Below are positions 3,205 to 39,440 of a stretch of 64,000 nucleotides of DNA, one piece after another (within the stretch, counting starts at the first letter, position 1; each line of letters opens with the position of its first letter). The position numbers and the translations under genes were made by a program. The notes beneath the pieces are model-generated. The model searched no databases, was not told the DNA's origin, and saw only the letters and a program-made list of their open reading frames with translations. The stretch comes from a virus, in the IMG/VR virus record IMGVR_UViG_3300009506_000008, positions 37,021 to 101,020 of that record. The stretch is one strand, 5' to 3'.

Positions 3205-3216
3205 GTGTACCTCCTC

Positions 3217-5031: not shown

Positions 5032-5033
5032 CG

Positions 5034-5276: not shown

Positions 5277-5367
5277 GCGATCCTCCTCTTGACTGTGCTC
5301 CTTCAGGAGCAGGTTGAGAAACCGAGGAAGGGGACGAGGTGACTCGTCCCCTCGACTGCGCCTCAAC

Positions 5368-9646: not shown

Positions 9647-9810
9647 TTTTTCCTCCTGTTGAACCACTCCCCGCACTGGTTACACTTTCTGACAGTGTCG
9701 GACAGTGGTTTCACGTTGCGGGACTTGCACTTGGGGCACTGACCCCACCCCGTGTCAACTCCCTTGTTGTAGTGGACTCCTGCACGCTCGAAATTGGTCG
9801 AAAACGGCAT
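9643..9810 (-). CDS. Zinc-ribbon microprotein
   Basis: CPKC...CNQCG; SD GAGGAGG. Confidence 0.75.
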   Translation of the reverse strand: MPFSTNFERAGVHYNKGVDTGWGQCPKCKSRNVKPLSDTVRKCNQCGEWFNRRKK

Positions 9811-9882
9811 TTCTTGATCCTCCTCTGCTAGGGTTGACTGCCTGGGCCTGCCCTCGTCCAGAGACAAGGACAGGAACAGAGG

Positions 9883-10095
9883 TCAACGAGAGTGGTCGAG
9901 AGGAACCGGGACCATTGCCGATCCCAGCCAGTACAGGTAGCAGTTCAGCCCGTGTTGGGCAATAATGGCCTCGATCACCTTTTTGGCGCTCTTGGACGAC
10001 GTCGAACGGTGAATCGTGGCAAGGGCACGAGCCTTGCTGGCATCATCCGGCATGGACAACGCCGTTCTGATTCGGGACGGGATGGTTTCGGCCAT
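9883..10095 (-). CDS. Hypothetical protein (70 aa)
   Basis: TAATG overlap, SD AGGAG. Confidence 0.65.
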   Translation of the reverse strand: MAETIPSRIRTALSMPDDASKARALATIHRSTSSKSAKKVIEAIIAQHGLNCYLYWLGSAMVPVPLDHSR

Positions 10096-10262
10096 TACTT
10101 CACTCCTTGAACTGAGAGTTTGCACTTCTCACAGACCAGTTTCCGGGGATCGCTTGGAACGCCCTTTGCGGGATTCCAAACCATCACCTGTCGAGAGTCT
10201 CCAAAGGCCCATCCGCATTCAGTTGTACCCTTACCGTTTACGAGGTGAATTTTGTGCTTCAT
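10095..10262 (-). CDS. Zinc-finger microprotein (H..C..CxxC)
   Basis: KIHL...ECG...CEKC; SD GAGGAGG. Confidence 0.7.
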   Translation of the reverse strand: MKHKIHLVNGKGTTECGWAFGDSRQVMVWNPAKGVPSDPRKLVCEKCKLSVQGVK

Positions 10263-10369
10263 TAGAATCCTCCTCTCAGGGACAGCTGGTTCATGACGGG
10301 AGCCAAGTAGTACGCGGCCCCAACAGCGAGTGCTCCGAGCCAACCGATTGCCAGCCATACGACATTCAT
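10262..10369 (-). CDS. 35-aa single-TM peptide
   Basis: MNVVWLAIGWLGALAVGAAYYL; SD AAGGAGGT after the WGAA hairpin. Confidence 0.6.
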   Translation of the reverse strand: MNVVWLAIGWLGALAVGAAYYLAPVMNQLSLRGGF

Positions 10370-10442
10370 TTGAACCTCCTTCTGTTGTACCGCTTCAGCG
10401 GTAGTTGGCGGGCACCGAACTGGTCGATGCCCTACGGATGAC

Positions 10443-10577
10443 CTAACCAACAGCTTCGTCGTATTCACGCCATGCTGCACAGTGTGAATCACATCCGGGG
10501 CAGCTATCGTGGTCGCAATCCATGCAGGGATCGTCAATCTCGACAATCGTACCATCCGCCATAGTCGTCTCTCGCAT
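10443..10577 (-). CDS. 44-aa Cys-rich acidic microprotein
   Basis: CMDC...CPGC...C; TGATG overlap. Confidence 0.6.
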   Translation of the reverse strand: MRETTMADGTIVEIDDPCMDCDHDSCPGCDSHCAAWREYDEAVG

Positions 10578-10870
10578 CACTTTTCCTTTCTCCGTCGGAT
10601 AACCTTGGCCCCGTTCGCCAAGGCTTTCTCTTTGGCCTTCTCCAAAGCATGGTCGGCAAACGCCTTTCCGAAGGGATTCATCTGGTCGTAGCCGATCAAT
10701 TGGTCGCGCTCCTCTGCGCGATCCGCTTTGGCGATCAAACCCCGCAACTGCTTGGCGTCGTAGGTATATGGGTGGTACCGCTTCTCTTTCTTGATTCGGG
10801 GTTTGATCGGACTCTGCATCACCGGGTCTCTGCCGTTCCTTGGAGACCCCACACCAAATCTCTTCGACAT
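10577..10870 (-). CDS. Basic hypothetical protein (97 aa)
   Basis: SD AAGGAGGT; K/R rich. Confidence 0.75.
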   Translation of the reverse strand: MSKRFGVGSPRNGRDPVMQSPIKPRIKKEKRYHPYTYDAKQLRGLIAKADRAEERDQLIGYDQMNPFGKAFADHALEKAKEKALANGAKVIRRRKEK

Positions 10871-10884
10871 TCTTGAACCTCCTT

Positions 10885-11390
10885 GCAGCAATTGAACAGA
10901 ACGGGATACAGCTGAATTTTTCCGGGTAGGAACGGACATTGGAAAAGTCCATCTGAATCCTGTTCTACTCTTGGTCGTATAGGGGAGAAGCGTCGCGCAC
11001 GTGAGCTGGTCGTCCGATCCTCGCGGGTACGGCTAACGTCACCCCCCACCTAGCCCGTTGACCCCGCCGCTCCGCTCCAGGTGGGTTGCACCTATCTTGG
11101 CAGAGCTCCAACCCCGTGCGGCCTAGCTTGAACAGATGGCGTCGGCGCGGTATTGGAGAGGTGGCCTGCGTGGACTTCCGATACTCTTGGTGGCCCGTAT
11201 CGGGCGCAGGCTCGTTGGGTTAGGAAGTGAGCATATTTCGCCCAAATCCCGCGTGCTGCGACTCCCGTTGTCAAAGACCGATCCTGCGGTTGACCCCCCC
11301 TGACAGGGCGCTCCCGTGGCCGGAAGCGGCCTGTCAGGGGAAGGGTCGGCCTGGGCGGCCGATCCTTCCTGGATCCCGACTTGCGCGGTA
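10885..11390 (-). ncRNA. ~500-nt highly structured intergenic/leader RNA (family unassigned)
   Basis: No credible ORF; series of nested stems (GCCTGCG..CGCAGGC, CCGATAC..GTATCGG, CTCCAA..TTGGAG, CCCACCT..AGGTGGG, AGAACAGGAT..ATCCCGTTCT). Confidence 0.5.
11267..11279 (-). promoter_or_regulatory. boxA-like antitermination element
   Basis: GGTCTTTGACAAC on the minus strand, 8 nt 3' of a long hairpin; resembles rrn boxA (E. coli TGCTCTTTAACA). Confidence 0.6.
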
Positions 11391-11392
11391 GG

Positions 11393-11731
11393 CTAACTGG
11401 CGCGGTATTCTCCCGCTTTTTCGGCCGCTTGCATGGTCGCCTGGTTGAAGCTGAGGCTACCGTCGGCCGCTTCGATAACGATGGAACCGAATCTTTTCGC
11501 GAGGTGGCGAAGGTGGCACTTCACGCGGCCGATGAGCGCCTTATGGGCTTCTTGTCCGTGGCCGCCACGGCCGCTGTTTTTCCTTTGCGCTTGTGGGTAC
11601 TCGCCACCGGCTTTGCCGATGTGGAGCTCATCGGCAATACCGCGAATGTCACGGCCGCCAAACAGGATAAGGGAATCAATCCTGGCCGCCTGGGAGTCTA
11701 CATTGTGACCGAGAAAGTTTTTCTGTGACAT
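11393..11731 (-). CDS. First gene of leftward operon, possible DNA-binding protein
   Basis: SD AGAAAGG after a TGAG-loop hairpin; IRGIADEL...RVKCHLRHL resembles a split HTH (weak). Confidence 0.7.
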   Translation of the reverse strand: MSQKNFLGHNVDSQAARIDSLILFGGRDIRGIADELHIGKAGGEYPQAQRKNSGRGGHGQEAHKALIGRVKCHLRHLAKRFGSIVIEAADGSLSFNQATMQAAEKAGEYRAS

Positions 11732-11960
11732 GGTGTTCTACCTTTCTGACCGCCTCAGCGGCCGTCGGTTTCCGCGAATCGGGCTGATCCGCGGGGTGGA
11801 ACTTTTTATTTTTTAGTTATGCGCGAAGTGTGCCGAAGAGATGAAATCGCGCTGAAAAACATTGTTTGTTTCAGTCGGATCATCCCGCAATCAGCCGGAA
11901 TCGCCCGGAAACAAAGGGAAAAATTATTTTTGCCTATGCTAAGATTTCCAACAAAAATCA

Positions 11961-11976
11961 CGGCACATCAATTGCA
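11961..11976 (+). promoter_or_regulatory. sigma54 (-24/-12)-type promoter motif
   Basis: CGGCACATCAATTGCA = GG-N10-GC with GGCAC and TTGC. Confidence 0.55.
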
Positions 11977-12094
11977 CAGCAAACGATGTTTTCATGAAAT
12001 ACTGCGCGAACACACACACCTCATGGACGCAGTTTGCTCTTACAAGTGTTACAAACCAGGGACTTTTCCGCGAGAATACAGGCTTTTTTGCACT

Positions 12095-12135
12095 GTGCGA
12101 AATCGCGCACCCCTACTGCGCAGAATCGCGCAGTA
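12095..12135. promoter_or_regulatory. Tandem palindromic operator/enhancer sites
   Basis: GTGCGAAATCGCGCAC and TACTGCGCAGAATCGCGCAGTA, centres 22 bp apart. Confidence 0.55.
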
Positions 12136-12750
12136 TTCCAAGCAAAGCATGATTCGCGGTACTAGACTGGACAGCCCATCGCTTATCTATTACATAAGGG
12201 AAAACGAGTGTCAGTTGACAAACGCCACCTTTGCAGAAACAAACATGACACTTTCAGGGGATCAAGAAAAGGGAAAACGATACCTGAACGGGATGGGCGG
12301 GAATGTATGCAAAGGAAGTGTCAGGTTTCAGAGTAAGGGAATAGGGGAAAAGGTTCCGGCCATCCATACATACCGGCGATCAACAAAGAGCACAATGAAA
12401 TCCCTACCAACTGAAGAGACAATTGAGACGATGACACGATCAGTTCCACACTACGCTGTCAGGGGATTGATCGGCCTATTGTTGACACGGCCGATGCTGG
12501 TAGGGGTGTCCGATACCCGACCAAGGGAGGCAGGGTAAGCCGTTTGGGCCCCCGTAGGTAGTATCATCAGTAGGCCCCTGGTTATGAAAACCTTGGTTTA
12601 GTAAAGGAATCAGGGACATGCTAAGGTTGATACATGATTATTGAAAGAGATTAAAGAACAAAGAGTGAGGTGCCGATAAAGCCTGAAAAGGTTTTCATCA
12701 ATGTAGGGGGCTGGTTAAGTTGACGTTGACTTTTGCACATTTTCGTTGAC

Positions 12751-12785
12751 GAATACTCATGAAGTATTTTTTATCATGAGTATTC
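12751..12785. repeat. Perfect 12-bp inverted repeat with 11-bp AT-rich spacer
   Basis: GAATACTCATGA-AGTATTTTTTA-TCATGAGTATTC. Confidence 0.85.
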
Positions 12786-12884
12786 CGAATCTCCCCCGGT
12801 AAAAAATCTTCAAGGGAACGAAATCACCCGTTACGTCCAAGCGGTTATAGGATTTTTGGTCTCTTCCAAGGAAGGAAGGTGTTT

Positions 12885-13034
12885 TTGCCTGAAAAAGAGG
12901 TGTTGATTCTTCATGGAGAAAGCATCAATGATATTTTGTGTGTGTCAAATGCCGATGACATGTCCATAGTGGTATTGAACGCTATAGTGATGTTGATATT
13001 GATACTGGTCATTGATTCGTGGAGGAGGAAATAG
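12885..13034 (+). CDS. Possible 49-aa single-TM protein (TTG start)
   Basis: Purine-rich GGAAGGAAGG upstream; ...MSIVVLNAIVMLILILVIDSWRRK. Confidence 0.35.
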   Translation: MPEKEVLILHGESINDILCVSNADDMSIVVLNAIVMLILILVIDSWRRK

Positions 13035-21433: not shown

Positions 21434-21982
21434 ATGGACATCAGCGGTAAGCTCGGGAGTCTGAACCTAGCAATTCCCCTAGCTCGGTTGTATGACCGAT
21501 TGGGGGATGTTTGGTTCAAGCTCTTGGTAGATACGGGGAAGGCAGCGGGAGAGCTTGTCGTTGGTGAAGCAAAGATGACGACTCTGTTTCAAGATAGTCA
21601 GCACCCGGAACGAGGAAGCGGCGGTCAACTGAGAGCGTCGATAACAACTCAGACCTACTCCTCCAGGCGACAAATCACAACGATAGTTTGGCCGGGTATG
21701 GAGTATGGTAGATACGTTCACGACGGGACAGTAGACACTTCCAAAATCGCCCCCAAGAAAGCCCGGCCAATGGGTCCGGGCGATCCTCGTTTTATCTTCC
21801 CCGTAAACACGCGAGCCCTGCGGTTCTTCATAGGTGGAGAGGAAGTATTCGCCGCTTGGGCGCGAAAAGGAAGGCGCAAGGCTCGTCCGTTCCTGTACGA
21901 TGCGTTGGGAAAGAAGCAGAAGGAAATCACAACGATGTTTGCTGATACAGTAAGTCTGTTGATGCAAATAGCAGGAAGGTAG
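21434..21982 (+). CDS. HK97 gp10-like neck/tail completion protein
   Basis: GQLRASI, EYGRYVHDGT and KARPFLYDAL motifs. Confidence 0.8.
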   Translation: MDISGKLGSLNLAIPLARLYDRLGDVWFKLLVDTGKAAGELVVGEAKMTTLFQDSQHPERGSGGQLRASITTQTYSSRRQITTIVWPGMEYGRYVHDGTVDTSKIAPKKARPMGPGDPRFIFPVNTRALRFFIGGEEVFAAWARKGRRKARPFLYDALGKKQKEITTMFADTVSLLMQIAGR

Positions 21983-21988
21983 GGGGTC

Positions 21989-22360
21989 ATGGCAAAAGTC
22001 TACTCGGAAACAGATGACGTCTTCGACCCTCTCATCCAAGGCATAACACAGGACGAGGACCACGAAGAGGCTGGCCGGGTAATCGAGAGGGAATTGAAGA
22101 AGCGGGGGATTGATCCCGCTCTCGTTACCTCGGAGGATGGCATCGAGTACCTGAGGCGTCTGTCAGTTCTGTACGCTTCACTGTATCGGTGTCGGCTGTC
22201 GATGTCGGATGAAGGGGATTCTTACCATGTGCGGGTTGTAGATCTCAAGGAGCAATGGCAGGACGCCCTGGACGAAATCACGTATGAGGGACTACTGGGA
22301 AAGATTCCCGATTCAACAGGCACGTCGCTGCTGGGATCGGTATCAGTCAAGCGAGGGTAA
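21989..22360 (+). CDS. Putative head-tail adaptor
   Basis: Small helical protein ending SVSVKRG; position in neck module. Confidence 0.65.
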   Translation: MAKVYSETDDVFDPLIQGITQDEDHEEAGRVIERELKKRGIDPALVTSEDGIEYLRRLSVLYASLYRCRLSMSDEGDSYHVRVVDLKEQWQDALDEITYEGLLGKIPDSTGTSLLGSVSVKRG

Positions 22361-22361: not shown

Positions 22362-22787
22362 ATGCCACCTGCGGCAATCGTACATTGGAGCATGAAGGCC
22401 GGGAGAAGCGAAGACTTCACCCGGTTCCAGTTTCAACAGTACGACTACACTTGTCGTGCCTTCAACATTCCCTTAGTCCTAGTTGACGAGTTCGATTCGT
22501 TCGGGCTTGAAGTATTGAACGGTATCTTCCCTACCTTGGTCCAAGCAGTTTCCCTATTCCCTCGCCACATTCCTGTCTACATGGATAAAGAGGCTGAGCA
22601 CCGCCTCCAAGATGTAGAGTTGCCTGAACAGAGTGTGTTCATTGTCGGCCCTGATTTCGGAAGTATGGAAGATAAACCGGAACACGCTTTCAGAATCAGA
22701 GTTGATTATCCTCGCATGGAGCAGGAACTGTGGTCTTGCAGTGTGTTGGCGATCTGTTTATTTGAGTGGAGTCGCCAATGGCCGTAG
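22362..22787 (+). CDS. Divergent SPOUT (TrmL/SpoU-like) methyltransferase-fold protein
   Basis: SVFIVGPDFGSM...RIRVDYP...ELWSCSVLAICLFEWSRQ aligns by eye with TrmL LMFGPETRGL...IRIPM...SMNLSNAVSVVVYEAWRQ; 141 aa. Confidence 0.72.
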   Translation: MPPAAIVHWSMKAGRSEDFTRFQFQQYDYTCRAFNIPLVLVDEFDSFGLEVLNGIFPTLVQAVSLFPRHIPVYMDKEAEHRLQDVELPEQSVFIVGPDFGSMEDKPEHAFRIRVDYPRMEQELWSCSVLAICLFEWSRQWP

Positions 22788-24370
22788 CAACTAATCTGAC
22801 CACCGTCGATTCCTGCGAGGGGATCACTGGATGGAGCGCTCATAACATTTCAGGTGCCGTAGGCACATTGGGTGCCATCCAAGCTAGCGATGAAGAAGCC
22901 CCTCCCGTTGAGGGAACTTACTGTCTCTCGTATGATATTGACATAGAAAACGGGGGATATGTTTACGAGGTCAATGCTAGCGGGGAGGATTGGTCTGCCC
23001 AGACTGCCTACATTTGGTTGCTGTGCATGACGGCAGCATCTCTCCAGGTGCTGACTCCGGGTAGCGGACAAAGCGGAGTTTACTTCATAGCCATAGATAC
23101 CAGCGGAAACGCTGGTTACTGGCATGTAGGGGGTTCAGACACATACAGTGGCGGATGGAAGTGTTTCACTTGCTACTTTGGGAACACCCCGGATACCAAT
23201 AACGGTACCAATCCCACGATGTCTTCTATTCGATATGTTGGGATAGGTACGAACCACCTTTCCAAGTCTAAAGCCACTCATAACGTCTTCTTCGATTTCT
23301 TCAGAAAGGGAAATGGAGGAATCACGGTTACTGGAGGATCTTCTGGTACTCCGTTGACGTGGGACGACATTGTATCGGGTGACGCGAGTATCGCGGCGGG
23401 CATCATCCGAAAGCAGGGAGGTGTTTACTTCGTCCAAGGTCAGATTGTCTTCGGCGATGGTACCGGATCGACTGACACATATTTCGATGACGAAGGTCAG
23501 ACCATCGTGTTCGAGGGCAACGAGCACGTGGCCAATGATACCTATGGTTTGCAAGTCGTAGAGAACGGGGCAAGCAACCTAACCAGCTTCGTCATAGGAA
23601 ACAAGACGGGTGGACAGGGGTTGCAGGGGGGCTCGATCCTCGGGGCTTTGCCGTGGGACTTCGATGCCAGTGACGAGGACATTACCAAACTTCTCATCTA
23701 TGGAGCGGTCCTTCAGAACTTCAGGACGTTCGATCTGCCGTCCAATGCTACCGACCGCGAAGTCTTAGGATGCAATTTTCTGGACGGTGGCGAGATTACA
23801 CCCAACACTATCGTTTTCCAATACTGCAATGTCATCAATGCAGACGCTAGGGGACTGAAGCTGGAGAGTACCAGTCACAATATGTCGTATTGCAACTTCA
23901 TCTCCAATCCTCACAGCATTCACATAGACACGGCAGGCACGTACACCATTAGCGGGTGCAAGTTCTTTGGATCTGACGGTTCGTCTACGTATGATTTGGA
24001 GAATAGCAGTACGGGCGCGGTTACAATCAGTGCGACAAATGACTCCGACATAGCTGACTATGAAAATACTGGAGGAGGGTCGGTAACAATTCAGAATCAG
24101 AAGTCGCTCACTATCGGGACAACATCCAATCCGTTGGTGGCGAACAGTGAGGTGAGGATCTATCGTACGAGTGACGATGCTGTGTTGGATGGGGTGGAAA
24201 ATAGTGGAACCACGTTTGCGTACAGTTACAATTACACCGGTGATACTGACGTGTACGTTCACATCATTCACCCGTCCTATGTGTGGGAACGACTAGACTT
24301 GACGTTACTAAGCACCAACCAAGCGGTTCCGGTCAAACAACGGCCAGACCGGATGTATTCTAACCCGTGA
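22778..24370 (+). CDS. Virion-associated protein: N-terminal beta-sandwich, beta-helix, C-terminal Ig-like domain ending DRMYSNP
   Basis: Repeated xxCNF/xxCKF beta-helix rungs; overlaps the SPOUT gene by 10 nt. Confidence 0.75.
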   Translation: MAVATNLTTVDSCEGITGWSAHNISGAVGTLGAIQASDEEAPPVEGTYCLSYDIDIENGGYVYEVNASGEDWSAQTAYIWLLCMTAASLQVLTPGSGQSGVYFIAIDTSGNAGYWHVGGSDTYSGGWKCFTCYFGNTPDTNNGTNPTMSSIRYVGIGTNHLSKSKATHNVFFDFFRKGNGGITVTGGSSGTPLTWDDIVSGDASIAAGIIRKQGGVYFVQGQIVFGDGTGSTDTYFDDEGQTIVFEGNEHVANDTYGLQVVENGASNLTSFVIGNKTGGQGLQGGSILGALPWDFDASDEDITKLLIYGAVLQNFRTFDLPSNATDREVLGCNFLDGGEITPNTIVFQYCNVINADARGLKLESTSHNMSYCNFISNPHSIHIDTAGTYTISGCKFFGSDGSSTYDLENSSTGAVTISATNDSDIADYENTGGGSVTIQNQKSLTIGTTSNPLVANSEVRIYRTSDDAVLDGVENSGTTFAYSYNYTGDTDVYVHIIHPSYVWERLDLTLLSTNQAVPVKQRPDRMYSNP

Positions 24371-24385: not shown

Positions 24386-26023
24386 ATGGCCAAGATTACC
24401 GACCCCGATAGCCTAACCAGATGCACCACAGGTCAGTTAGGGACGGACGGGAACTTGGAAATCGACACGACCAACCATACTCTCGGTCTGGCTGCGTACG
24501 GGTCGCTTTCCGATTCTGGTTCGTCCGCCACAAACGGAGTCAGCCTTCAAGCGGTGTACTCCAAACTCAAGGAACTGTGGAAGTCGGAATCGGATCTCCC
24601 GGTGGAAAAGTTCCCCATCGAGGCGCTTCAACCAGACAAGTACGAAGTCAAGAACGGCTGGACGTGGAAGGATGCTAACACGAGAACACTTCTGCGTGAC
24701 GGCGGCTGGGCTGTACTAGACACTTCCGAAGTCACTCAGAATGCCGAGGAAATGTTCATGAACGTCATCTCCCTCGGTTCGTTCGATGACAGCGCGAACG
24801 ACTTGGCGTACTTCCAGCGTACGGATGGAGGTGATCCGGTAGACTTCGACTTCAACGGCGAGGTTAACCAGGGCGTCCAGATCTATCAGGACGACAATGC
24901 GGATGGCACGCCAGACAACGACTGGCGCGACTACTTCGTCATGTTCCTGCGCGAGGAACAGAAGACGTATGACCGGTACGACCTGATCACCGAGCAGGGC
25001 ATCAGCCAGCTGACATACATCACGTACAAGTTGCCGTTGTCCAACGGCACGGACCTCAAAGCGTCGGTGACGGACTTGACCATCGACTCCAACACCGATT
25101 ACGACCCTGAAGGCGACTACGCGAACATGACCATCGAGTGGTTGTACGGATCGGCTGGTCGGTTCAACATTCGGGGCAATGCTGCGATTGACACTTACGC
25201 TGTGGATGACGTGGTCAAAGACGGCGACTCTCCGGCGCGGTGGGCGAAGTGTACGGGTGCTGGCACGATCACGGGCGGTGAAAGCGGTCCTTACGCATCC
25301 TTCACCGGTACTGCGACTTGGGCTGCTTACACCGAGGGCGAACACCAAATCGGTACCAGTTACTACGCTTTCACCGTCGAGATCGACTTCGATTCCAAGG
25401 TCATGCAGAAGGGTTACGAGTTCGTCCAATGGCGACTCCGCAACCCGGTTGGGCAGGACATTGACGACAACGCCACCGGAACCTACGTTGGTAAGATCGC
25501 GCCCGAGCTTCTGTACTACATCGGTGACGTACTTCACACGATGCCGGAAGTTTGGATCGCCAATTACAACTCCGGTGACGTGAACAGCATCGTGTTCCAC
25601 GATCACACAGACACTGGACGACAGTTCCCGTATACTGCATCCATTACCCTCAACTTCAACCAGAACTTGCAGGATGATAGTGGACCTGCTGAGTACTGGC
25701 TGTTCTTCCTCGATCCCGAGGGCGATGGCTCGACCAACATCTGGCCGGGACAGAATGCCATCGTTGTGGACGATGACACGACAGCCAACATCGAGGGCAA
25801 CATTTCCGGTCCCAGCGTCTCCAAGGGATTCGCAATCGACACCAACACTCAGGGTTCCGAGACGAACTACACCACTGCGAGCGGTCCAGTTCCTGTTGTG
25901 GCTGTAGCGGCTGGAACAGACAAAGCGCAGTACGTGTTCCAGACCGGCGTAATCGACCGTACCACAACGAACAGCATCACGCTCAATGCCGCACTGGAGA
26001 GAAACTACTCCAACCCGGCATAA
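24386..26023 (+). CDS. Abundant virion structural protein, putative filament subunit, ending ERNYSNPA
   Basis: SD AGGAGG; capsid-like codon bias; followed by a strong hairpin. Confidence 0.75.
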   Translation: MAKITDPDSLTRCTTGQLGTDGNLEIDTTNHTLGLAAYGSLSDSGSSATNGVSLQAVYSKLKELWKSESDLPVEKFPIEALQPDKYEVKNGWTWKDANTRTLLRDGGWAVLDTSEVTQNAEEMFMNVISLGSFDDSANDLAYFQRTDGGDPVDFDFNGEVNQGVQIYQDDNADGTPDNDWRDYFVMFLREEQKTYDRYDLITEQGISQLTYITYKLPLSNGTDLKASVTDLTIDSNTDYDPEGDYANMTIEWLYGSAGRFNIRGNAAIDTYAVDDVVKDGDSPARWAKCTGAGTITGGESGPYASFTGTATWAAYTEGEHQIGTSYYAFTVEIDFDSKVMQKGYEFVQWRLRNPVGQDIDDNATGTYVGKIAPELLYYIGDVLHTMPEVWIANYNSGDVNSIVFHDHTDTGRQFPYTASITLNFNQNLQDDSGPAEYWLFFLDPEGDGSTNIWPGQNAIVVDDDTTANIEGNISGPSVSKGFAIDTNTQGSETNYTTASGPVPVVAVAAGTDKAQYVFQTGVIDRTTTNSITLNAALERNYSNPA

Positions 26024-26090: not shown

Positions 26091-27389
26091 ATGGCCGATC
26101 CCGTAACCTTCGACGGACCAGGGAACCAGATCAACGTCGATTTTGGTGTGACGGAGATCGACGTTCGCCGGGATCTGTACAGTGCTTGGAAAAGATGGGT
26201 GATTACTGGAGAGGGGGCCAAGTACATGCCCCTCATGCGGACGGTTGCTGGTGACGATCTCGGTGGAGGGAAGAAGCTAGGTTCTGCTTACTTCATGTTG
26301 GAAGGGTGCAAGATCAAGCCTCACGAAGCTAGCCACACGTTGAATGTTACCGGTAGCTTGTTCGTGGAGAATGCGGCAACGTACGGGGATGACCCGTTTA
26401 TTCCTACCACGGGAGCTTACACAGTCAGCATCAGGTCTGCAACTTCTGAGGTCTTGTTGGCAGATGTCGAAGAGACCAATCTCATCCCTCATCTAGGAGC
26501 CATCTACTACGACGAGAACGCCAACAATACCGGAACTGTAGTAGGGACTGATGGGGTTCCCGGCAATCCTGTTAGTTCTGAGGCAGCGATTCACGGGTTA
26601 CACGATCAATCAGGTCTAAACCTTGTGCGTATTATGGGGACGCTAACGTTATCCGAGGATCATGCCGAACCGTGGATGTACGAGGGATTGAATCCTTCGT
26701 CTATGTTGAACATGGATGGGTACAGTGTTGACGGTGGTCGTATCTCCCGAATGGGTGTTACTGGACAACAGGGCGGGAGCGGACAAGTTCAATGGGATAT
26801 GGTGGTATGTTCCGGGGTAACCAACGCTTTTGTATTCGGTGACAAGGTATGGCTAAAGGGCGACTTAGAAGTCAGGGCCGGTAGCCATGTCCTAACCAAC
26901 GTATTCGATTCGGTGCCTGGAGATGACGAACCTGTCCTGTCCTTCGGGAGTTCTTCTGCTACCGAAGTGAACATTCAGAACTACCGTGGCGAGCTAGAGA
27001 TTGCCAACATGGGGGCCAACCATAAGATCGAGTTCGCCGGTTCCGATGCGGAGATCATTATCCTAGCCAGTTGCACCGGGGGCACGATTGAGGTTTACGG
27101 GTCGGTGTTGGTAGTAGATCAATCTGGGGGTGCTGTAACGGTCATAGACGAACGCCAAACAGCCGATGCGACAACCACCGCCGATGCTGTTTGGGCTCAT
27201 GCGACGGCTACCTCGTTCCTCAGCAAGATTGGCAGTCTGTGGAACAAACTCTGGCCTAAGAAACGCACGTTCGTCAAGGATAGCGACACGCAGTACACTG
27301 AAACGATCTACGAACAGGACGGAGTTACCCCGGAGGCTTCATTTACTCATACCAAGTCCGGGGATGACGAGTCGGTGGACCGTGTATGA
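26091..27389 (+). CDS. Virion-associated protein, N-terminal domain apparently paralogous to the 545-aa protein
   Basis: VTFD...DLYSAWKRW...YFMLEG; central beta-solenoid-like region; ADAVW motif. Confidence 0.75.
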   Translation: MADPVTFDGPGNQINVDFGVTEIDVRRDLYSAWKRWVITGEGAKYMPLMRTVAGDDLGGGKKLGSAYFMLEGCKIKPHEASHTLNVTGSLFVENAATYGDDPFIPTTGAYTVSIRSATSEVLLADVEETNLIPHLGAIYYDENANNTGTVVGTDGVPGNPVSSEAAIHGLHDQSGLNLVRIMGTLTLSEDHAEPWMYEGLNPSSMLNMDGYSVDGGRISRMGVTGQQGGSGQVQWDMVVCSGVTNAFVFGDKVWLKGDLEVRAGSHVLTNVFDSVPGDDEPVLSFGSSSATEVNIQNYRGELEIANMGANHKIEFAGSDAEIIILASCTGGTIEVYGSVLVVDQSGGAVTVIDERQTADATTTADAVWAHATATSFLSKIGSLWNKLWPKKRTFVKDSDTQYTETIYEQDGVTPEASFTHTKSGDDESVDRV

Positions 27390-31285: not shown

Positions 31286-31292
31286 GGTGCCT

Positions 31293-34200
31293 ATGGCAAC
31301 TGGTGGAAGTGGAAAGGGCAAGGCGGCCAAGCTATCGGTTATCATAGAGGCCATTGATAACTTTTCAGAGGAGTTCCGCAAAGCGTCAGAAAATGCGGAA
31401 CGTTTTTCTGAGGCCCTTGATAAGGCATCTGGTTCGTACAACGCTTTCGTCCAGACCATCACTGCGATCCGGGGAGAGCTGACACGTCTCGGTGAAGAAG
31501 TCGATGTAGTCAAGAAAGCCCTCCAGAACCTCCGCAAGTCAGCCCAGTCTACGGCCCAATCTCAGGACAAGATGGGAGAGGCGGCCAAGGACACGGCAAA
31601 AGGTCTGAAGGATGTAGGTGAAGCGGCTGACAAGGCCGGGGACAAGTTAGATAGCGCCACCAAGGATACAAATGAGCTGAAGGAGTCGATGGATCAGGCT
31701 AAGGATACCCTACAGAAGGTAGGTAGGGCATTCCTGGCGTTGACCGCGGCTTCTCGTGCTTTTGCTCTTACCAAGCAGGTTGCTGGGGTATTCGCTGATC
31801 TGTCTGGTTCCTATGCGGATCTGGAATTACAGATCAAACGGATCGAAGCTATTTCCGGGGCCAGTGCCGATGCGATGTTGGGCGTAGCCAAAGCCGCTAC
31901 CAGTGCCGACATTGCAATGAAAGGCTTTGCTGGTGCGGAAGTAGCGGAGACGATGTTTGAATTCGCTCGTGCCGGTCAAACCATTGAATCCAGCATCATC
32001 GCCCTTCCAAGTATCACTTCTTTTGCCGTCGCCGGTACGCTAGATCTCAAGGACGCATTGAACACCGCTCTCGGTGTCATGTTCTCCTTCAAGACCGGTG
32101 CCGACGGTCTGTCCAAGTCCTTCGATATTATGACCCGAGCGGTGAACACGTCTCGCTTGGGTGCGGCAGAGTTCTCTGATGCGATTCGTACGGGCGGCGC
32201 GGCGGCTCAGATTGCTAACCAAGATTTGGCTAGCTTCTTGGGCGCAATCCGGTCCATGCGCGAGATCGGGATCACTGCATCCATGGCCGGTACTGCGTTC
32301 AAGACGGCTATGATGCAATCGATCATCGGACCTGCGAAGGATGCGCAGGATGTCATAGCCAAGTACGGTCTGCGGTTTCGTGATGCGGCGGGCAACGTTC
32401 GTCCATTCGCGGACATCATCGAGGAGTTAGAAGTCAAGCTCGGGGGGCTGTCGAGGGTTGCACGTGACGCAGCTTTGGCGGACTTGTTCGGGACACGCGG
32501 GATCCAAGCTGCCGTTGCCGGGTTGAGTGTTGGTAGTAAGGCGTTGCGAGCGTGGACACAGGACCTCAGAGACGCAGGGGACGAGACGGATCGGGTAGCG
32601 AACGTGATGCTTGAAGCCTTGTTCCAGAAAGTCAAGGCTCTCGGGGCAACGTTCGAGAATTTCAAGGCTGTCTATGGCGAGACGATGGCCCCGTTCGCTT
32701 CGGATCTCGTAGCTTGGTTGACTCGACTGTTGCAATCGTTCATCGAGCTGGACGATTCGGTCAAGAAGGGGCTTCTCGTTACGTTGGGAGTGGCGGGATT
32801 GGCGGGGGCATTGCTGGCTGTGGCGGGGGCAGCGGCAGGTGTCGTGGCTGCGATCTCGTTGATCACCGGCCTGTCGGCAGGGGTCATCGTAGGGATAGGT
32901 GGAATCGCTCTTGCGCTATCCGCAGCCATCGGGGCTCTGGTTGGATTTTCTGCGGCGGCTGAGGATGCTTTCAAGATTGTACCGGAAGGGTTTGACAAGC
33001 TGAAGAACGAAGCCGACCAGATTTCGGAGGCTTCTAAGTTCCTGGCAGCGGCTCTGAGAGAAATCCAGGAGTCGATTGGGGAGAATACTCTTCAGTTCGA
33101 GAACACTGCCGCAACGATCCGCGATCTGCGCAACTTGGGTACAGAATTCAACAAGCTTCATGGGAATGTGGTAGAGGGATCTGAGAAGCATCAACGATAC
33201 CTTCAGGTACTGAATGCTATCGGTGGATACCTACCGTCCGTGAAGAAACTGATCGAGGACGAAGCTGTCACGTTCGAGAATGTGAATGCGGCAATTCAGG
33301 CTGGGGTGGAAGAGAGGCTTTCCGGTCTTGAGAAGATGCGGGACAGCCAAGAACTTCTGCTGCGCCAGGAACAGGCGAACGTAGAAGAACAGATCAAGGT
33401 CAACAAGGGCAGGCTGGACAATATCAAAGCCTCTATGAAAGCTGAAAGGGGAGAGTACAACAAGCAGAAGGCTTTCCTTGATAGGATGGGTACCGAGTTG
33501 GGTAGGGGATCTTTCTATCAGGAGATCAGCCGTACCCAAGGAGGTCGAGCCCAAGACATCGTTGCTGATGTGGAGAGGATGATTGAGAGGGCTCGTGAGT
33601 ACGTAAAGACCCACGAGGAGCGCGAGGCAGCTTGGAAGAAGTCTCAGGAAGCTGCCCAGACGGCTCTCGATGCTGAGGAAACGAAGCTCGTAGAGGTCAA
33701 GAAGAAACTTCAAGAGCTTCTCCAGTTCGAGGGAGCTGAAGGGTGGTTTGCGAAGATTATCAGGGATCTCTTCGGTAAGGGAGGTGTTGAGCAACTATCC
33801 GAAGAGATGCAGAAGATCACCGACAATGCTTTGACCTATTGGGAGAAGTATCTCAGATCTCAGATTGTCCTAGCTCCGAACGATGCAGCCAAGAAGAAAG
33901 CCGAAGACGAACTGAACAAGTTCCGGGCTGACTACTTGGCTTTCTTCGATCCCTCGACGGGATTGTTCAAGTACGATGACGACTTCTACAAGTTCTTCAC
34001 CGGCATCCAGGAGAAGCTGGTAAAGGTCACTCAGAAGTACGACAACTTCTTCAAGGATCTGGCCGTCGCCGTCAGACTCGAACAGGATGCGGACAAGGCT
34101 GAGAAGAAAGCCGAAGAGACTGCCAAGAAGATCGCCAAGCATTACGAAGACTCGGTGATCAAGACGGTACAGGTTCTTCAGCAGCTCATGAAGGCTGGGG

Positions 34201-37200
34201 AGATCGACCCAGATCAATATGTCGAAGCTCTGCGTGCCTTGGAGGAAAGCTACTCGGCCAGCGGGAAGTCGCAACTCTCTACCATCCTCAAGATCAACGA
34301 TGCCTCGAATGACGGTGTCAAGGATCAGATGGAACAGAACACGCGGCTGTTCAGGCTGCGCGTTCTCAATGAGGAACAGTACCTCGCTCTCCAGGAGTCC
34401 TATATCGCTCTGTGGTCTGGCAATGAGGAGGGTCGAGTTGAGCAAGAAGCGAAGGTTTATGAACAGATAGCGAAGCTACGCCAGGCCGATCTCAATGCCG
34501 ATGTGAAGGCTGCGGAGGCCAAGCGCCGACGAGGTGAGGGATCGTACGCAGACGTTCTTGACGTGCTTGCTACTTACATTGCGCAGGCGACCGACGGGAA
34601 TGAAAAGCTCATTGCTCTGAGGGAACAGTGGATCGAGAAGTACCTGTCCACCGAACAGATGGCGCAAGAGGAGTCTGACAACACTCGACGGTTCTTGTAT
34701 CAGGTAGGAGTCCTTACCACCGAGGAGTACAAAGCTCAGTTGGAGGAAAGGCTCTCCGCATTCAAGGGTAATGAGCAGAAGAGACAAGCCCTTGCCAACG
34801 AGTACAAGAAGCTGGTTGAGGACACTCTGTACAAAGAGAACACCAGCCTGTTCCGAGCACGCGCAATCAGCGAAGAGCAATATATCAATACGCAGTTGGC
34901 CTTTCTATCTGTTTGGGAGAAGAATGAAGCCAAGCGGATCGAAGCGTCCAGGAAGGTGTACGATGAGGTAAACAAGGTCAGGAAGAGTGACTACGACAAC
35001 GAGGTCAAGGAAGCTGAGAGAAGGATCTCCCTCGGGCAAGCCACGACAGACGACCTGATTGCAATCAACGATAGATACCTCTCCAAGGTAAGGTACGACA
35101 CAGATCAATCCAGGAAGTTCTTCACCGAATTGGCCGATGATCGTGTTGCCTTGGAGCAGCGTGTTCGAGACGAGTCTACGGCTACGATGAAGTGGGAAGT
35201 CGATATGGGGTATCGTACCATATCGGAGTACAAAGCCCACTTGGAGAAGCGGCTTGCTTCCTTCAGAGACTTTGGAGAGAAACGTCGTAGCTTGATGTTG
35301 GAACTGCAACAAGTAACGGAGCAAGCAGACTTTATCAAGCCGTTGGCCGAACAGGATTCCTGGATCTCTCTCGTTCAGACGAAGATCCAAAGCATGACCG
35401 GGGCCTATGAAGCCCTTGGTCATAAGATGACCGCCTCCATGAAGACAGACTTGCTGGAGGAGCAAGCCGATTGGTATGAGGTGCTCATCGAGAAGCAGAT
35501 TCAAAACATCGAGCTTTTGATCAAGAGGGCGCAAGCAGAAAAGGATACTGTCAAGAAGAACACCTTCCTCCAAGAGGCGTTAGAAGCAGAGCAAGGCGTT
35601 TACCAGTCTCTCCAAGAGTTCCAAGAGTTCGGTGCTAAGTTCCCCGGTCGGTTCGGATCTGAGATTCGGGCAGTGACCCAGGATGCGATTGATGCACTGG
35701 ATAGGATCGGGGACAACATTACCGATACCATAAACGGGGTGAACAACACGCTGTTCAATACACTCCGTGACATGGATCAGACTCGGGTTCTCCTCTCGCA
35801 GATGGCTCTTGAGCGAGAGAACATCAAGCTGTCCACCGAGGATCTGGCTTTGGTGTTGAGGACCTCCCAGGAGGTTGCAAACAAGCTCGGTGAGTCGGTC
35901 CCATCTATTGAAGAGGTTGTCACCGCTGCCCGTTCGCTCGCCGGTAGGATAGACGATGGCGGAGCGGCTTTCGAGCGTTCCAGTAGAGTAGCTCAGGACG
36001 CTGCTACGATCCTGATCCAGCCGTACAATGACCTGAGGACGCAGCTGGATTCGATGATCGCTTCCGCTGAGCAGATGACCTCGAACTGGAGAGAGGGCGC
36101 GACCAAAGCGGCTCTGGGATTCCAGATTCTCGGTACAAAGATGGACCCGTTGGAAGAGCGGATGGGTCAATGGCTCGCGAGCACCGAGCCTGTCTCGGAT
36201 GGACTGGACTTCCTAGCTGAGAAGTTGAACATCGGCAAGGACGCCATCGAGGAATTGAACAGGAAGTACGGGGATGCCAAGGACGAGGTAGGGGGAGGGC
36301 TTGAGGAACTTCGACAGGCATTGGGAGGGGCTGAAGAGGGAACTGCAAAGGCCAAGACAGCTTCCGAGATCATGGCGGAGGCGGCAGAACAACTTCGGTT
36401 GATTGTAGGTCAGCAAAGCTCGGCCAGTGACGCGGCGGGGAATGCCGCAACCGTCTTCAGCAATGCAGCGGGAGAGTTGACTACAGTCATTCCTCAGATT
36501 ACTTCTGTGTCCGAAACCACTGCCGGTCTTGCCGGGACGATGGAGACAGCTTCTGGCAACTTGACGACTGCGGTAGGTCAGTTACAAACAGCCGCCCAGT
36601 CCACCGAAGGGATTTCTCGGGCCGCTCAAGTTGCGGTGTCTCGATTGGTAGAGTTGCTGCCCGACGTAGCCGGATTGGCCGGTGATGTTGTTTCCTCTGC
36701 TGGCAGACTAACGTCCGCGTCCAACTCTCTGTCCGGTGTGTTTAATCAGGTAGATTCCTCGGTAGGGGACTCTACCGGGAACTTGGCCGATGCAACTGGA
36801 GAACTTACCTCGACCACCGGCGGTCTTCAAGATGTGTTGAACACGGCTCGGGATGCTTCCGGTACTTTGTCAGAGGCTTCGTTGGATCTGTTGACATCTG
36901 GAGGAGTGCTCGGGGACCGTCTCGGAGAGCTACAGGGCGCAGTCACCGTTCTAAGGGAAGCCACAACGGGACTGGCTAACATCCCTCCCGAGTTGCAGGT
37001 TGCTTTGCAGAACGTTGAAACCTACGTAGGCAACCTGACGGGGGCTTCGAACCAGCTAAATGATGCGGCTGCGAGATTCCCCGAGCTATCTAGGTCGGTA
37101 GAAAAGGCTTCGAATCAGTTCGGTACGGTAGTTGGGGAACAGTCGGCTCTGGTAGATCCGTTGAGAGCAGTGGCTGCTGGAAACCGAGATGCTGCCTCGG

Positions 37201-39092
37201 CTGTCAACCTCGCTGCAACCAACTTCCGAGGGTCCGCCAGTACGATGCAGACGTTGGGAGGATCGTTAGCTGATGCGGTAACGCGAGCGGCAGAAGGAAC
37301 CGCTACAGCCAAGGATGTAGCTTCTACGGCTGGCGCAACCATCTCGGCAGCGGAAGATGCTGCTCAGGCGGCTACTGAAGGGGCGCGGAATGTTCAGAGA
37401 ACTGTTCCGGCTCTCGACTCAGCTATCAGCAATTTGACGGCAGCGTCTGGTAGTTCCGAAGAGGCCACTACTCGGCTTGCGGATCTCATTCCATCCTTCG
37501 GTGACATTGTCACGCAGATTGCTCGGGCGGCTGAGTCGATAGGAGTTGCTTCCACCTCGATCCAAACTAACTTGAGCGCACTCGGCGACCTTGCGGGGAG
37601 CATGGAGGATGCTGCTGGAGGAGTGCGTACTGCTTCATCGGACATCGTAGGATTGACGACGGAACTCCAATCCGTAACCTCCGCTTCCAATGAAGCGATT
37701 CGTGCGGCGCGGGATGCTGCTACGTCAACGGGCAATTCTGTAGGTCAACTCGGGGAGGTGCTGTCTCGGATCGAGACGGCGGTGACAACGATTGGTGCGG
37801 CTTCTACGCAGTTGGATGCTACCACTCGGGCGTTCTCTACCCTCATCTCGAACGTTACCGCAACGTCGGGTAACTTGGCAGGTACCATCGGAACCTTGTC
37901 TCAAGGCATCACCGACATTCGTACTTTGTCGGCAGAGACTCAGACCGCGGCTGGATTGATCACTACCGGGGCGGCAGATTTCAGAACGGTAGCTGATTCG
38001 TTTGGTGCTTACATTGCGGTCATAGGGGATGCCGCAGAACCGATCAAGCTAGCAGGCGACCAGATAGCCGGTCTCATTCCTCAACTCTCCGGTGTGGTAG
38101 GACAGTTTGCTCCCGTTCAAGCTGCCTTGACGAACATTGTCGGGAGTTACGATGCTGCCCTTCAGAGATTGGACACAGTATTTGTTGGAGCAGCGGATAC
38201 CACGAGGGTTTTGACATCTGCGGCTGGGGAACTCTCGGCTAGGTTCAGCGAATACGGTTCCTTGACGAGTGAGCTTGCTGTAGCAGGTGACAAGGTAGCT
38301 ACTGCGTCGTCAGCTATGGAAAGCACTCTCGGGATTCTTCGCTCATTCGCGGCAGACATGGCCCGCACCAGTGAGGGGCAGGCTATCGTCGCTACCAGGA
38401 TGAGCGGTTTGATAGATCCCCTGTACGCTTACATAGGATCAATCACATCGGCAACTAGCAACTTGAGTGAGGCCGGTGTAGAAATCGCGGGAGTGCTGGA
38501 GTCGGTACGAAATGTTTCAACCGACATCATCGGAGTGGCGGGTGCTCTAACCACTACGGCAGGAACCCTCGACAGTGCGGCGAGCGGATTCAGCGCCTCC
38601 GTCGATGCTGCTGGAGAGGCTTCCGAAAAGTTCATTACCACAGCGGCAGACTTGGAGGAGACTTCCTCGGTATTCCAGACGGTCATCCGTCAGAGTAGCA
38701 CGATTGTAGACCAAGTGCGGAACTCGGTGGCCGGTCTGTACAACAAGGAAGAGATCGTGGCGTCGAAGCTGAGCGAGATTGCCTCAGAGTTCGGCAGCCA
38801 AAGAGATCGCATTGCAGGGGCTCTCCAAGATGTCAACGGTAAGTTGCAAGAAATGGCGCAGGCCATTCGAGACTTTGGTTCTCTCAATTCGGACATTGCT
38901 ACATCGGTAGCCGTGGTTGGTACGAAGATGGACAGGATGGACACTGTCATCGAAGACTTGAGTGGGGCGATTCGCAGAATGCCCGATACAATTGAACAGA
39001 ACTTCGACATTGACATCAACGGATTGTCGTTGGCTGTGGCGGAGTTGCGGACTGCTATTCGTCAGCAAGTAATGGCTCTGATGCCGAGGTAA
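31293..39092 (+). CDS. Tape measure protein (~2600 aa)
   Basis: TP901-type core (AEVAETMFEFARAG, ASMAGTAFK, RDAAGNVRPF), hydrophobic segment, long helical repeats. Confidence 0.95.
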   Translation: MATGGSGKGKAAKLSVIIEAIDNFSEEFRKASENAERFSEALDKASGSYNAFVQTITAIRGELTRLGEEVDVVKKALQNLRKSAQSTAQSQDKMGEAAKDTAKGLKDVGEAADKAGDKLDSATKDTNELKESMDQAKDTLQKVGRAFLALTAASRAFALTKQVAGVFADLSGSYADLELQIKRIEAISGASADAMLGVAKAATSADIAMKGFAGAEVAETMFEFARAGQTIESSIIALPSITSFAVAGTLDLKDALNTALGVMFSFKTGADGLSKSFDIMTRAVNTSRLGAAEFSDAIRTGGAAAQIANQDLASFLGAIRSMREIGITASMAGTAFKTAMMQSIIGPAKDAQDVIAKYGLRFRDAAGNVRPFADIIEELEVKLGGLSRVARDAALADLFGTRGIQAAVAGLSVGSKALRAWTQDLRDAGDETDRVANVMLEALFQKVKALGATFENFKAVYGETMAPFASDLVAWLTRLLQSFIELDDSVKKGLLVTLGVAGLAGALLAVAGAAAGVVAAISLITGLSAGVIVGIGGIALALSAAIGALVGFSAAAEDAFKIVPEGFDKLKNEADQISEASKFLAAALREIQESIGENTLQFENTAATIRDLRNLGTEFNKLHGNVVEGSEKHQRYLQVLNAIGGYLPSVKKLIEDEAVTFENVNAAIQAGVEERLSGLEKMRDSQELLLRQEQANVEEQIKVNKGRLDNIKASMKAERGEYNKQKAFLDRMGTELGRGSFYQEISRTQGGRAQDIVADVERMIERAREYVKTHEEREAAWKKSQEAAQTALDAEETKLVEVKKKLQELLQFEGAEGWFAKIIRDLFGKGGVEQLSEEMQKITDNALTYWEKYLRSQIVLAPNDAAKKKAEDELNKFRADYLAFFDPSTGLFKYDDDFYKFFTGIQEKLVKVTQKYDNFFKDLAVAVRLEQDADKAEKKAEETAKKIAKHYEDSVIKTVQVLQQLMKAGEIDPDQYVEALRALEESYSASGKSQLSTILKINDASNDGVKDQMEQNTRLFRLRVLNEEQYLALQESYIALWSGNEEGRVEQEAKVYEQIAKLRQADLNADVKAAEAKRRRGEGSYADVLDVLATYIAQATDGNEKLIALREQWIEKYLSTEQMAQEESDNTRRFLYQVGVLTTEEYKAQLEERLSAFKGNEQKRQALANEYKKLVEDTLYKENTSLFRARAISEEQYINTQLAFLSVWEKNEAKRIEASRKVYDEVNKVRKSDYDNEVKEAERRISLGQATTDDLIAINDRYLSKVRYDTDQSRKFFTELADDRVALEQRVRDESTATMKWEVDMGYRTISEYKAHLEKRLASFRDFGEKRRSLMLELQQVTEQADFIKPLAEQDSWISLVQTKIQSMTGAYEALGHKMTASMKTDLLEEQADWYEVLIEKQIQNIELLIKRAQAEKDTVKKNTFLQEALEAEQGVYQSLQEFQEFGAKFPGRFGSEIRAVTQDAIDALDRIGDNITDTINGVNNTLFNTLRDMDQTRVLLSQMALERENIKLSTEDLALVLRTSQEVANKLGESVPSIEEVVTAARSLAGRIDDGGAAFERSSRVAQDAATILIQPYNDLRTQLDSMIASAEQMTSNWREGATKAALGFQILGTKMDPLEERMGQWLASTEPVSDGLDFLAEKLNIGKDAIEELNRKYGDAKDEVGGGLEELRQALGGAEEGTAKAKTASEIMAEAAEQLRLIVGQQSSASDAAGNAATVFSNAAGELTTVIPQITSVSETTAGLAGTMETASGNLTTAVGQLQTAAQSTEGISRAAQVAVSRLVELLPDVAGLAGDVVSSAGRLTSASNSLSGVFNQVDSSVGDSTGNLADATGELTSTTGGLQDVLNTARDASGTLSEASLDLLTSGGVLGDRLGELQGAVTVLREATTGLANIPPELQVALQNVETYVGNLTGASNQLNDAAARFPELSRSVEKASNQFGTVVGEQSALVDPLRAVAAGNRDAASAVNLAATNFRGSASTMQTLGGSLADAVTRAAEGTATAKDVASTAGATISAAEDAAQAATEGARNVQRTVPALDSAISNLTAASGSSEEATTRLADLIPSFGDIVTQIARAAESIGVASTSIQTNLSALGDLAGSMEDAAGGVRTASSDIVGLTTELQSVTSASNEAIRAARDAATSTGNSVGQLGEVLSRIETAVTTIGAASTQLDATTRAFSTLISNVTATSGNLAGTIGTLSQGITDIRTLSAETQTAAGLITTGAADFRTVADSFGAYIAVIGDAAEPIKLAGDQIAGLIPQLSGVVGQFAPVQAALTNIVGSYDAALQRLDTVFVGAADTTRVLTSAAGELSARFSEYGSLTSELAVAGDKVATASSAMESTLGILRSFAADMARTSEGQAIVATRMSGLIDPLYAYIGSITSATSNLSEAGVEIAGVLESVRNVSTDIIGVAGALTTTAGTLDSAASGFSASVDAAGEASEKFITTAADLEETSSVFQTVIRQSSTIVDQVRNSVAGLYNKEEIVASKLSEIASEFGSQRDRIAGALQDVNGKLQEMAQAIRDFGSLNSDIATSVAVVGTKMDRMDTVIEDLSGAIRRMPDTIEQNFDIDINGLSLAVAELRTAIRQQVMALMPR

Positions 39093-39095: not shown

Positions 39096-39440
39096 ATGGC
39101 AACAATCAGCTTTCTCAACAAGGACTTTGCCACCCAGAGACGTCACTCTGTGGTGCATCCTCCGGGCATGTCCACTCCTCTCTACCTGGGTAGCAGGTAC
39201 GAGGGGGAGCTTGTTCAGGTAGACGGGGTCATCGAGGGCTCAAGTTACGACGATGCCAAGTCGGCGCTGGAGTCTATCCGAACCTTCGTCAAAAATAATG
39301 AGGAGGTGACAATCGGAGGAAATATCGGTACACTACCTGAATCAGAACAGATTACGGGCAAGGTTGAACGGTTCAGCGTAGCACATCGACCCGCGACTAA
39401 GTACCAACGCTTCTCGATCACGTTGAGGATGTACACATAA
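39096..39440 (+). CDS. Putative distal tail protein
   Basis: Small beta-rich gene directly after the tape measure. Confidence 0.55.
   Translation: MATISFLNKDFATQRRHSVVHPPGMSTPLYLGSRYEGELVQVDGVIEGSSYDDAKSALESIRTFVKNNEEVTIGGNIGTLPESEQITGKVERFSVAHRPATKYQRFSITLRMYT

Follow-up and report, generated by a model that had tools for sequence, protein, structure and literature searches.

What would a SPOUT-like protein be doing in the late operon of a phage, directly ahead of a gene for what is probably a virion fibre or spike? Nearly all SPOUT proteins are regarded as methyltransferases of RNA, a single eukaryotic member being known to act on protein, and the first-pass annotation of this DNA had proposed that an RNA-modification fold had here been repurposed for the proteins of a virion appendage. 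The window, by which is meant the whole stretch of 64,000 nucleotides analysed, covers the final 64 kb of a phage genome that is complete at 101,020 bp and has direct terminal repeats. Its features around the locus, in order along the DNA, are the following.

From ~13.7 kb, + strand: late operon, with large terminase, portal, MuF-like protein and major capsid protein in that order
21434..21982, + strand: Neck1 or tail-completion-type gene (phrog_5, a PHROGs match), the end of the head and neck block
Between the Neck1-type gene and the SPOUT-like ORF, + strand: gene for a protein of 123 aa
22353..22357, + strand: Shine-Dalgarno-like GAGGG, 4 nt ahead of ATG 22362, read from the sequence
22358-22360, + strand: stop of the gene upstream of the SPOUT-like ORF
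22362..22787, + strand: gene for a predicted SPOUT-fold (TrmL/YibK-like) protein of 141 aa (P0001), of a small phage-only family
22768-22771, + strand: GGAG ahead of the 530-aa gene
22778..22787, + strand: overlap of 10 nt, between ATG 22778 and the SPOUT-like stop TAG 22785-22787
22778..24370, + strand: fibre/spike-like protein of 530 aa, with the C-terminal end DRMYSNP, the constant downstream neighbour of the SPOUT-like family
22778..23347, + strand: N-terminal domain (~190 residues) of the 530-aa protein, whose presence and variation follow those of the SPOUT-like gene
24386..26023, + strand: protein of 545 aa, with the C-terminal end ERNYSNPA, found after the 530-aa homologue in some loci (L008, L015 and L021) and not in others
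26091..27389, + strand: protein of 432 aa, third gene of the cassette, with a homologue in L008
After the 530-, 545- and 432-aa genes and before the tape measure, + strand: several small genes
31287..39092, + strand: tape measure protein, 2601 aa

The presence of a tape measure protein of 2601 aa identifies the phage as a long-tailed siphovirus, in which the cassette lies between the neck and the tail genes; the length of this protein implies, in addition, an unusually long tail. The protein of 1917 aa encoded after it (39440-45193) has a short match to Pre-toxin TG (PF14449, E 2e-8, residues 1005-1031).

The extent of the gene is important in what follows. Translation of 22362-22787 gives the 141-aa ORF as first described, with FIVGPDFGS at residues 93-101, LAICLFEWSRQ at 129-139, QYDYTCR at 26-32 and ELW at 122-124, and the 10-nt overlap reported with the next gene is likewise correct. 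Both starts are supported by their homologues, in that the beginning of the 530-aa protein, MAVATN..., agrees with homologue N-termini of the form MAV(T/N)V, in keeping with ATG 22778, and the homologues of the SPOUT-like protein begin to align at their residue 3-4, opposite query residue 4-5, in keeping with ATG 22362. The database gene call for the same ORF is of 131 aa (P0002, 22392-22787) and begins at Met11, such that strand 1 and a conserved H-W are omitted. Because the homologue alignments extend to query residue 4-5, and because GAGGG precedes ATG 22362, this call starts 10 codons too late. Promoter-like and terminator-like sites around the ORF are in no excess over shuffled sequence. 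A programmed frameshift that would fuse the SPOUT-like and 530-aa genes was considered and rejected, there being no slippery site and the junctions ranging from a 10-nt overlap to a 2-nt gap; a fused SPOUT–fibre protein was also sought among longer proteins and none was found, which is weak evidence.

Simple comparison places the protein nowhere. A word-index homologue search matched only the protein itself, no family model for it exists in Pfam, PHROGs or NCBIfam, and SpoU_methylase (PF00588) does not match P0001 at E <= 1, one of 19 homologues doing so at E 0.09. An exhaustive phmmer search of 1.8 billion representative proteins, on the other hand, gave ~19 true homologues of 123-148 aa with 30-39% identity, the long matches P0011, P0018 and P0020 proving to be translated tandem repeats and not relatives. 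With the alignment of 19 homologues, AlphaFold2 models the 141-aa protein at a pLDDT of 94.4 and a pTM of 0.89; a model from the single sequence (pLDDT 36) was set aside. When this model is compared with the PDB by Foldseek the top matches are SPOUT enzymes, YibK/TrmL being first (E 4e-7), and VIA-align superposes it on YibK/TrmL with a Z of 15.7 and an rmsd of 2.3 Å over 131 of the 141 residues, residues 1-141 of the model lying on 5-154 of the chain. Profile comparison points to the same fold, the family aligning by hhalign with 14-15 SpoU domains (taken from four bacterial genomes, together with E. coli trmL) at probabilities of 91-94% and E values of 2e-7 to 9e-7. A search of the PDB with the family profile returned TrmH and TrmL only, weakly (E about 1) but in register, and the ESM Atlas also points to a SPOUT fold. 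Among viral structures in BFVD there is no phage protein with a SPOUT-like fold, only TrmH-like enzymes of giant viruses.

The agreement of AlphaFold2, Foldseek, VIA-align and hhalign thus bears out the end-to-end likeness to TrmL-type minimal SPOUT enzymes that had first been seen by eye, and the structure prediction that had been proposed as its check gives a high-confidence model which superposes on YibK over the whole domain. As modelled, the 141-aa protein has the SPOUT fold, with a likeness to TrmL far beyond chance. Moreover, the end-to-end superposition of model residues 1-141 on knotted YibK implies that the protein would contain the deep trefoil knot, which in SPOUT domains is built from about the last 40 residues and binds S-adenosylmethionine.

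A SPOUT fold in itself would suggest an enzyme of RNA modification. TrmL, YibK and CspR are minimal SPOUT tRNA Cm34/Um34 2'-O-methyltransferases of the SpoU-TrmH class (PDB 6qkv, 6qh8, 7e3r, 4jal), and the phage protein shares with them a similar size, one domain folded alike from end to end, three knot loops whose lengths match TrmL residue for residue, and a G-P-D where they have G-P-E. It could, accordingly, be a minimal TrmL-like RNA 2'-O-methyltransferase, expressed late against host tRNA or rRNA and adjacent to a fibre gene only incidentally; in favour of this are the nearest structures, all of which are tRNA or rRNA 2'-O-methyltransferases, and the size and SPOUT-only architecture of TrmL itself. 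The residues with which TrmL engages tRNA argue otherwise. Overall identity to TrmL is only 8-15%. Mutagenesis of the E. coli enzyme (EcTrmL) assigns tRNA binding or catalysis to R20, K42, R43, R45, R46, R59, R104 and R129 (PMC3763551), and in the hhalign register seven of these eight are deleted or replaced in the phage family, the equivalent of R20 being uncertain. A 13-residue deletion spans K42, R43, R45 and R46, the docking residues of EcTrmL helix alpha2, and the model is without a helix there; R59, R104 and R129 fall in variable, non-basic columns, and EcTrmL K81 becomes E77 in the window's protein. The phage family is also acidic, with a median pI of 5.1 and a net charge of -7, as compared with 6.2 and -2 for 15 SpoU domains. 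A six-frame search of the phage's own genome for Pfam SpoU found nothing, and the 64-kb window is without a tRNA gene. Judged from these aligned residues, the protein is not a TrmL, in that the residues which dock tRNA in TrmL are missing. EcTrmL dimerises through its C-terminal helix, where Y142 is critical, and in this column the family has Y in 15 of 29 members, F, H or W in 7 and A or S in 7, with F134 in P0001.

What, then, has become of the cofactor site? In the register of hhalign, G96-P97-D98 lies on EcTrmL G100-P101-E102 and E122-L123-W124 on S130-M131-N132, exactly as the first-pass annotation had them. In motif 2 (G-x-E-x-x-G), G96 is found in 29 of 29 members, P97 in 25 and D or N at 98 in all 29, the second Gly position being occupied by S, G, K, A or T across the family and by Lys in four members. 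The replacement of S-x-N in motif 3, first read in this protein as a loss of SLN, holds family-wide as E/D-L-W/F; the preceding I-P-M, a feature of TrmL, is kept in some members only (P in 11 of 29). In motif 1, the N-x-G has similarly been replaced. Here the earlier reading is right that N and G are absent, which is so in either register, and uncertain as to the arginine, which in TrmL stands opposite Y29 by hhalign and opposite R32 in the register first chosen. In all, three cofactor-contacting side chains are replaced, namely the equivalents of N14, S130 and N132, by which TrmL holds the homocysteine moiety; the two that form bonds with this portion of SAH in EcTrmL, S130 and N132, are E/D and W/F in the phage family.

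These losses do not leave a blank surface. About half of the best-conserved positions lie on what in TrmL are the loops of the SAH pocket and active site (G96, P97, D/N98, an aromatic residue at 99, V112, I114, L123 and W/F124), and conserved polar residues (H8, W9, K12, R21, Q25, D28, Y29, R32 and D42) lie on the ancestral active-site face. Given the conserved loop lengths, the invariant G96, the G-P-D and the nearby polar residues, the ancestral cleft has therefore been remodelled and not abandoned. In this respect the description of the protein as 'degenerate' was too strong, since the family keeps well-conserved polar residues of its own on this face. The window's protein itself departs from the family consensus at D10 (S), H11 (M), H75 (D) and Y99 (F).

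The genomic setting of the family provides the second line of evidence. A degenerate DNA pattern for H-W-x-x-K ... R-x3-Q-x2-[DE]-Y-x2-R, which has one match in the window and none expected by chance, was scanned over JGI metagenomes and gave 31 stretches, 11 of them with true family members. Two DNA patterns had no match in IMG/VR, and the ten matches of the pattern in GTDB genomes were chance matches without a true homologue, yielding neither a prophage copy nor a clue to the host. The 141-aa protein alone, as query for related IMG/VR loci, returned nothing, and a locus obtained there from the family alignment (L001) was discarded as false, being a 55-aa ORF with only the common first residues. 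An alignment of the 530-aa protein was more productive, giving two more SPOUT-bearing loci in IMG/VR (L058 and L061). Among isolated phages, tblastn with the SPOUT-like protein found nothing, and with the 530-aa protein found only a C-terminal match, in Virus Rctr197k, upstream of which there is no SPOUT-like gene.

In every locus with readable downstream DNA (12 of 12, the window included) the gene after the SPOUT-like gene encodes a homologue of the 530-aa protein, at junctions of -10 to +2 nt. The context of the homologues is, in other words, non-random, as the idea of a repurposed fold would have it. Upstream and head genes, by comparison, vary between the SPOUT-bearing loci: in L002 the portal (phrog_12) and the capsid family (phrog_1623) are different ones, in L008 a protein with a tail-fibre-like C-terminal domain is encoded upstream, and the upstream genes of L014 are without family assignment. 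Since the upstream genes differ while the pair is constant, it follows that the pair moves as a unit between phages. L008 also has three tandem paralogues of 341-371 aa (phrog_2448; 9785-12968) upstream of the SPOUT–fibre pair, followed by two paralogous genes of 108-109 aa.

As the protein is always encoded directly ahead of a fibre-like gene, it probably serves the fibre-like protein rather than modifying RNA. Indeed, so strict a pairing with one type of fibre N-domain, in 12 of 12 loci despite different head genes, when taken with the missing tRNA-binding residues, makes an RNA methyltransferase next to a fibre gene by accident highly improbable.

It is necessary to ask what the partner is. 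The 530-aa protein is one of a fairly large family of viral proteins listed as hypothetical, a few members of which have Ig-like (Big_1) or CarboxypepD_reg domains, and beta-helix-like repeats can be made out in it by eye; searches of the 530-, 545- and 432-aa proteins against Pfam, PHROGs, NCBIfam and PDB sequences gave nothing useful. Fibres and spikes typically vary at the C-terminus and are conserved at the N-terminus, and from this property, together with the position of its gene, the protein is likely to be a virion fibre or spike. Where the SPOUT-like gene is present, residues 1-190 of the fibre are its best-conserved stretch (39-62% identity to the window), and the C-terminal end differs from locus to locus (4-33%). 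In L059, L060 and L062, which have a related fibre and no SPOUT-like gene, identity to the window in the N-domain is only 28-31%, no better than the 25-40% of the other parts, the middle and helix parts matching at 28-40%. In two of these three phages, whose genomes are complete and whose N-domain is of this other type, the SPOUT-like gene is absent genome-wide. Moreover, two motifs of the N-domain, a calcium-loop-like D-x-D-x-E-x-G-G (residues 53-60, 22934-22957) and K-S-K (residues 163-165, 23264-23272), are invariant in the SPOUT-bearing fibres and absent in L059, L060 and L062, a difference between 10 and 3 sequences that may simply be shared descent. Pairwise identity of the SPOUT-like proteins also follows that of the N-domain (Spearman 0.63) and not that of the C-terminal part (0.23), over 36 non-independent pairs, and part of this correlation could again be explained by shared descent.

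In L059, genes for a GT1 glycosyltransferase, an FkbM-type methyltransferase (PF05050, E 1.6e-15) and a GT2 glycosyltransferase (2639-5551) lie just upstream of the 530-family fibre gene. L060 is a 97-kb phage encoding an FtsH-like AAA+/M41 protease (646 aa) and an ATP-grasp enzyme (2001-3941, 10449-11360). In L062, a protein of 215 aa encoded two genes upstream of the fibre (4911-5558) has a match to the FCCH domain of ubiquitin-activating enzyme E1 (PF16190, E 5e-10).

The far end of the fibre is a separate matter. The ending [DE]-R-x-[YF]-[SA]-N-P is common to the 530- and 545-aa proteins (24350-24370, 26000-26023); it recurs in L008, L015 and L021, and also in L062, which is without the SPOUT-like gene. 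The first-pass annotation had asked whether the YSNP cassette is always the neighbour of the family, which is not the case, as five SPOUT-bearing loci have another fibre C-terminus, no YSNP ending and a different second gene. From the pattern of conservation across loci, the partner of the SPOUT-like protein is the N-terminal ~190 residues of the fibre, and neither the YSNP tail nor the upstream genes.

Taken together, these comparisons lead us to read the protein as a derivative of the SPOUT enzymes which no longer acts on RNA and would be dedicated to the N-domain of the fibre, a reading to which we give a probability of about 0.8. The original suggestion of a fold repurposed for appendage proteins survives to this extent: a SPOUT fold is predicted, its context is constant and the tRNA-docking residues of TrmL are missing. 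Where the suggestion requires amendment is in the identity of the partner, which is the N-domain and not the YSNP cassette. Under this reading, a SpoU/TrmL-like ancestor would have given rise to a divergent, knotted SPOUT-fold protein no longer acting on tRNA, whose gene would form a two-gene unit with the fibre-like gene, the small protein acting on the N-terminal domain of ~190 residues.

How it would act is a more finely balanced issue. Our preference, held tentatively and at a little under even odds, is for a non-catalytic partner in assembly or attachment of the fibre N-domain. In such a mechanism the small protein would bind the N-domain through the remodelled ancestral cleft during production of the fibre and, once bound, would help the fibre to fold, assemble or attach without methyl transfer. 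A non-catalytic role is favoured because the side-chain contacts to the cofactor are lost, because Trp or Phe stands in the place of N132, because motif 2 does not conserve its second Gly and because polar residues of the family consensus are lost in the window's own protein. Against it, the conserved pattern of polar residues and cofactor loops looks more like the site of an enzyme or a ligand than like a passive scaffold. In SPOUT enzymes, moreover, the contacts to SAM come for the most part from the backbone, and the SpoU motifs are missing from several classes that are active (PMC9508554), such that loss of the motifs is no proof of inactivity.

These latter points lead to a less favoured reading, which comes close behind in our order of preference, that the protein is an active SAM-dependent methyltransferase of a residue in the fibre N-domain. 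The precedent is the yeast SPOUT protein arginine methyltransferase Sfm1, which methylates ribosomal protein uS3 and has Glu/Trp/Glu residues near its N-terminus (PMC9508554). Compared with it by description, the phage protein is likewise acidic, the negative surface of Sfm1 setting it apart from RNA-directed SPOUTs (PMC9508554), and has a conserved Trp and acidic residues near its N-terminus, where the conserved H-W-D that follows strand 1 and the D28 of helix 1 recall the Glu/Trp/Glu set. Conservation centred on the ancestral cofactor and active-site face, with G96 invariant and G-P-D as the G-P-E of TrmL, would also fit an enzyme, as would K-S-K and D-x-D-x-E, which among the fibres compared are invariant only in SPOUT-bearing N-domains. 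The genes just ahead of the L059 fibre, for an FkbM-type methyltransferase and two glycosyltransferases, in a locus where the SPOUT-like gene is missing, may be read in the same sense; L059 is, however, a single locus, and the window's own phage is without a glycosyltransferase. Set against a methyltransferase are also the replaced equivalents of N14, S130 and N132, with a Trp or Phe at N132 which may fill the homocysteine site, the variable second Gly with its Lys in four members, the consensus polar residues missing from the window's protein, and the lack of a C-terminal extension such as is essential for the activity of Sfm1. Any catalysis by the phage protein is putative.

The sugar-modifying genes of L059 (GT1, FkbM and GT2), which adjoin a related fibre gene, bring to mind a different activity, that of a methyltransferase of small molecules or glycans, or a SAM sensor, involved in decorating the fibre or in a change of the host surface akin to lysogenic conversion. 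In L058 a weak GT1/GT4 match, below Pfam cut-offs, lies directly upstream of the SPOUT-like gene. Most SPOUT-bearing loci are, nonetheless, without sugar genes nearby, and in the complete 101-kb genome of the window's own phage neither GT1 nor GT2 finds a match. Furthermore, no SPOUT enzyme is known to act on sugars (review PMC9508554), and this counts against such an activity, which we hold to be improbable.

The non-catalytic partner of the fibre, in turn, has its own precedents among phages. Lambda Tfa, P2 G and the SP6/K1-5 adaptor are also small proteins whose genes adjoin, and are co-inherited with, those of a fibre or spike, with a presumed role in its making or mounting. The phage protein differs from these in having an unrelated fold, in the order of the genes, its own being placed before the fibre gene and not after, and in that its binding to the fibre is conjectural; it has no Pfam or PHROGs match to tail-fibre chaperone or adaptor families. 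The gene of a known fibre chaperone usually follows that of its fibre, which counts against a role as chaperone, and an adaptor would have to dock on some conserved component of the virion, of which none is apparent.

Within the literature searched, the pairing of a SPOUT-fold protein with a phage fibre is nowhere described; the term 'spout-like' in papers on depolymerases describes a shape and not the SPOUT fold. Overall, a fold that is itself known occurs here in a family and a context that are both new, and its role is probably new as well. A knotted fold without RNA-binding features and tied to one fibre domain would widen the known roles of SPOUT proteins in either outcome, as a knotted partner that is not an enzyme or as a second protein-directed SPOUT enzyme. 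If it were to methylate the fibre N-domain, it would join yeast Sfm1 as only the second SPOUT that modifies protein, with no earlier example from viruses or prokaryotic systems, and would represent a new kind of enzymatic virion maturation. The pairing of the two genes offers a directly testable two-protein system. For the fibres themselves, a widespread and unannotated family, the SPOUT-like gene would be an unrecognised accessory gene, and one which could matter in expressing or engineering them.
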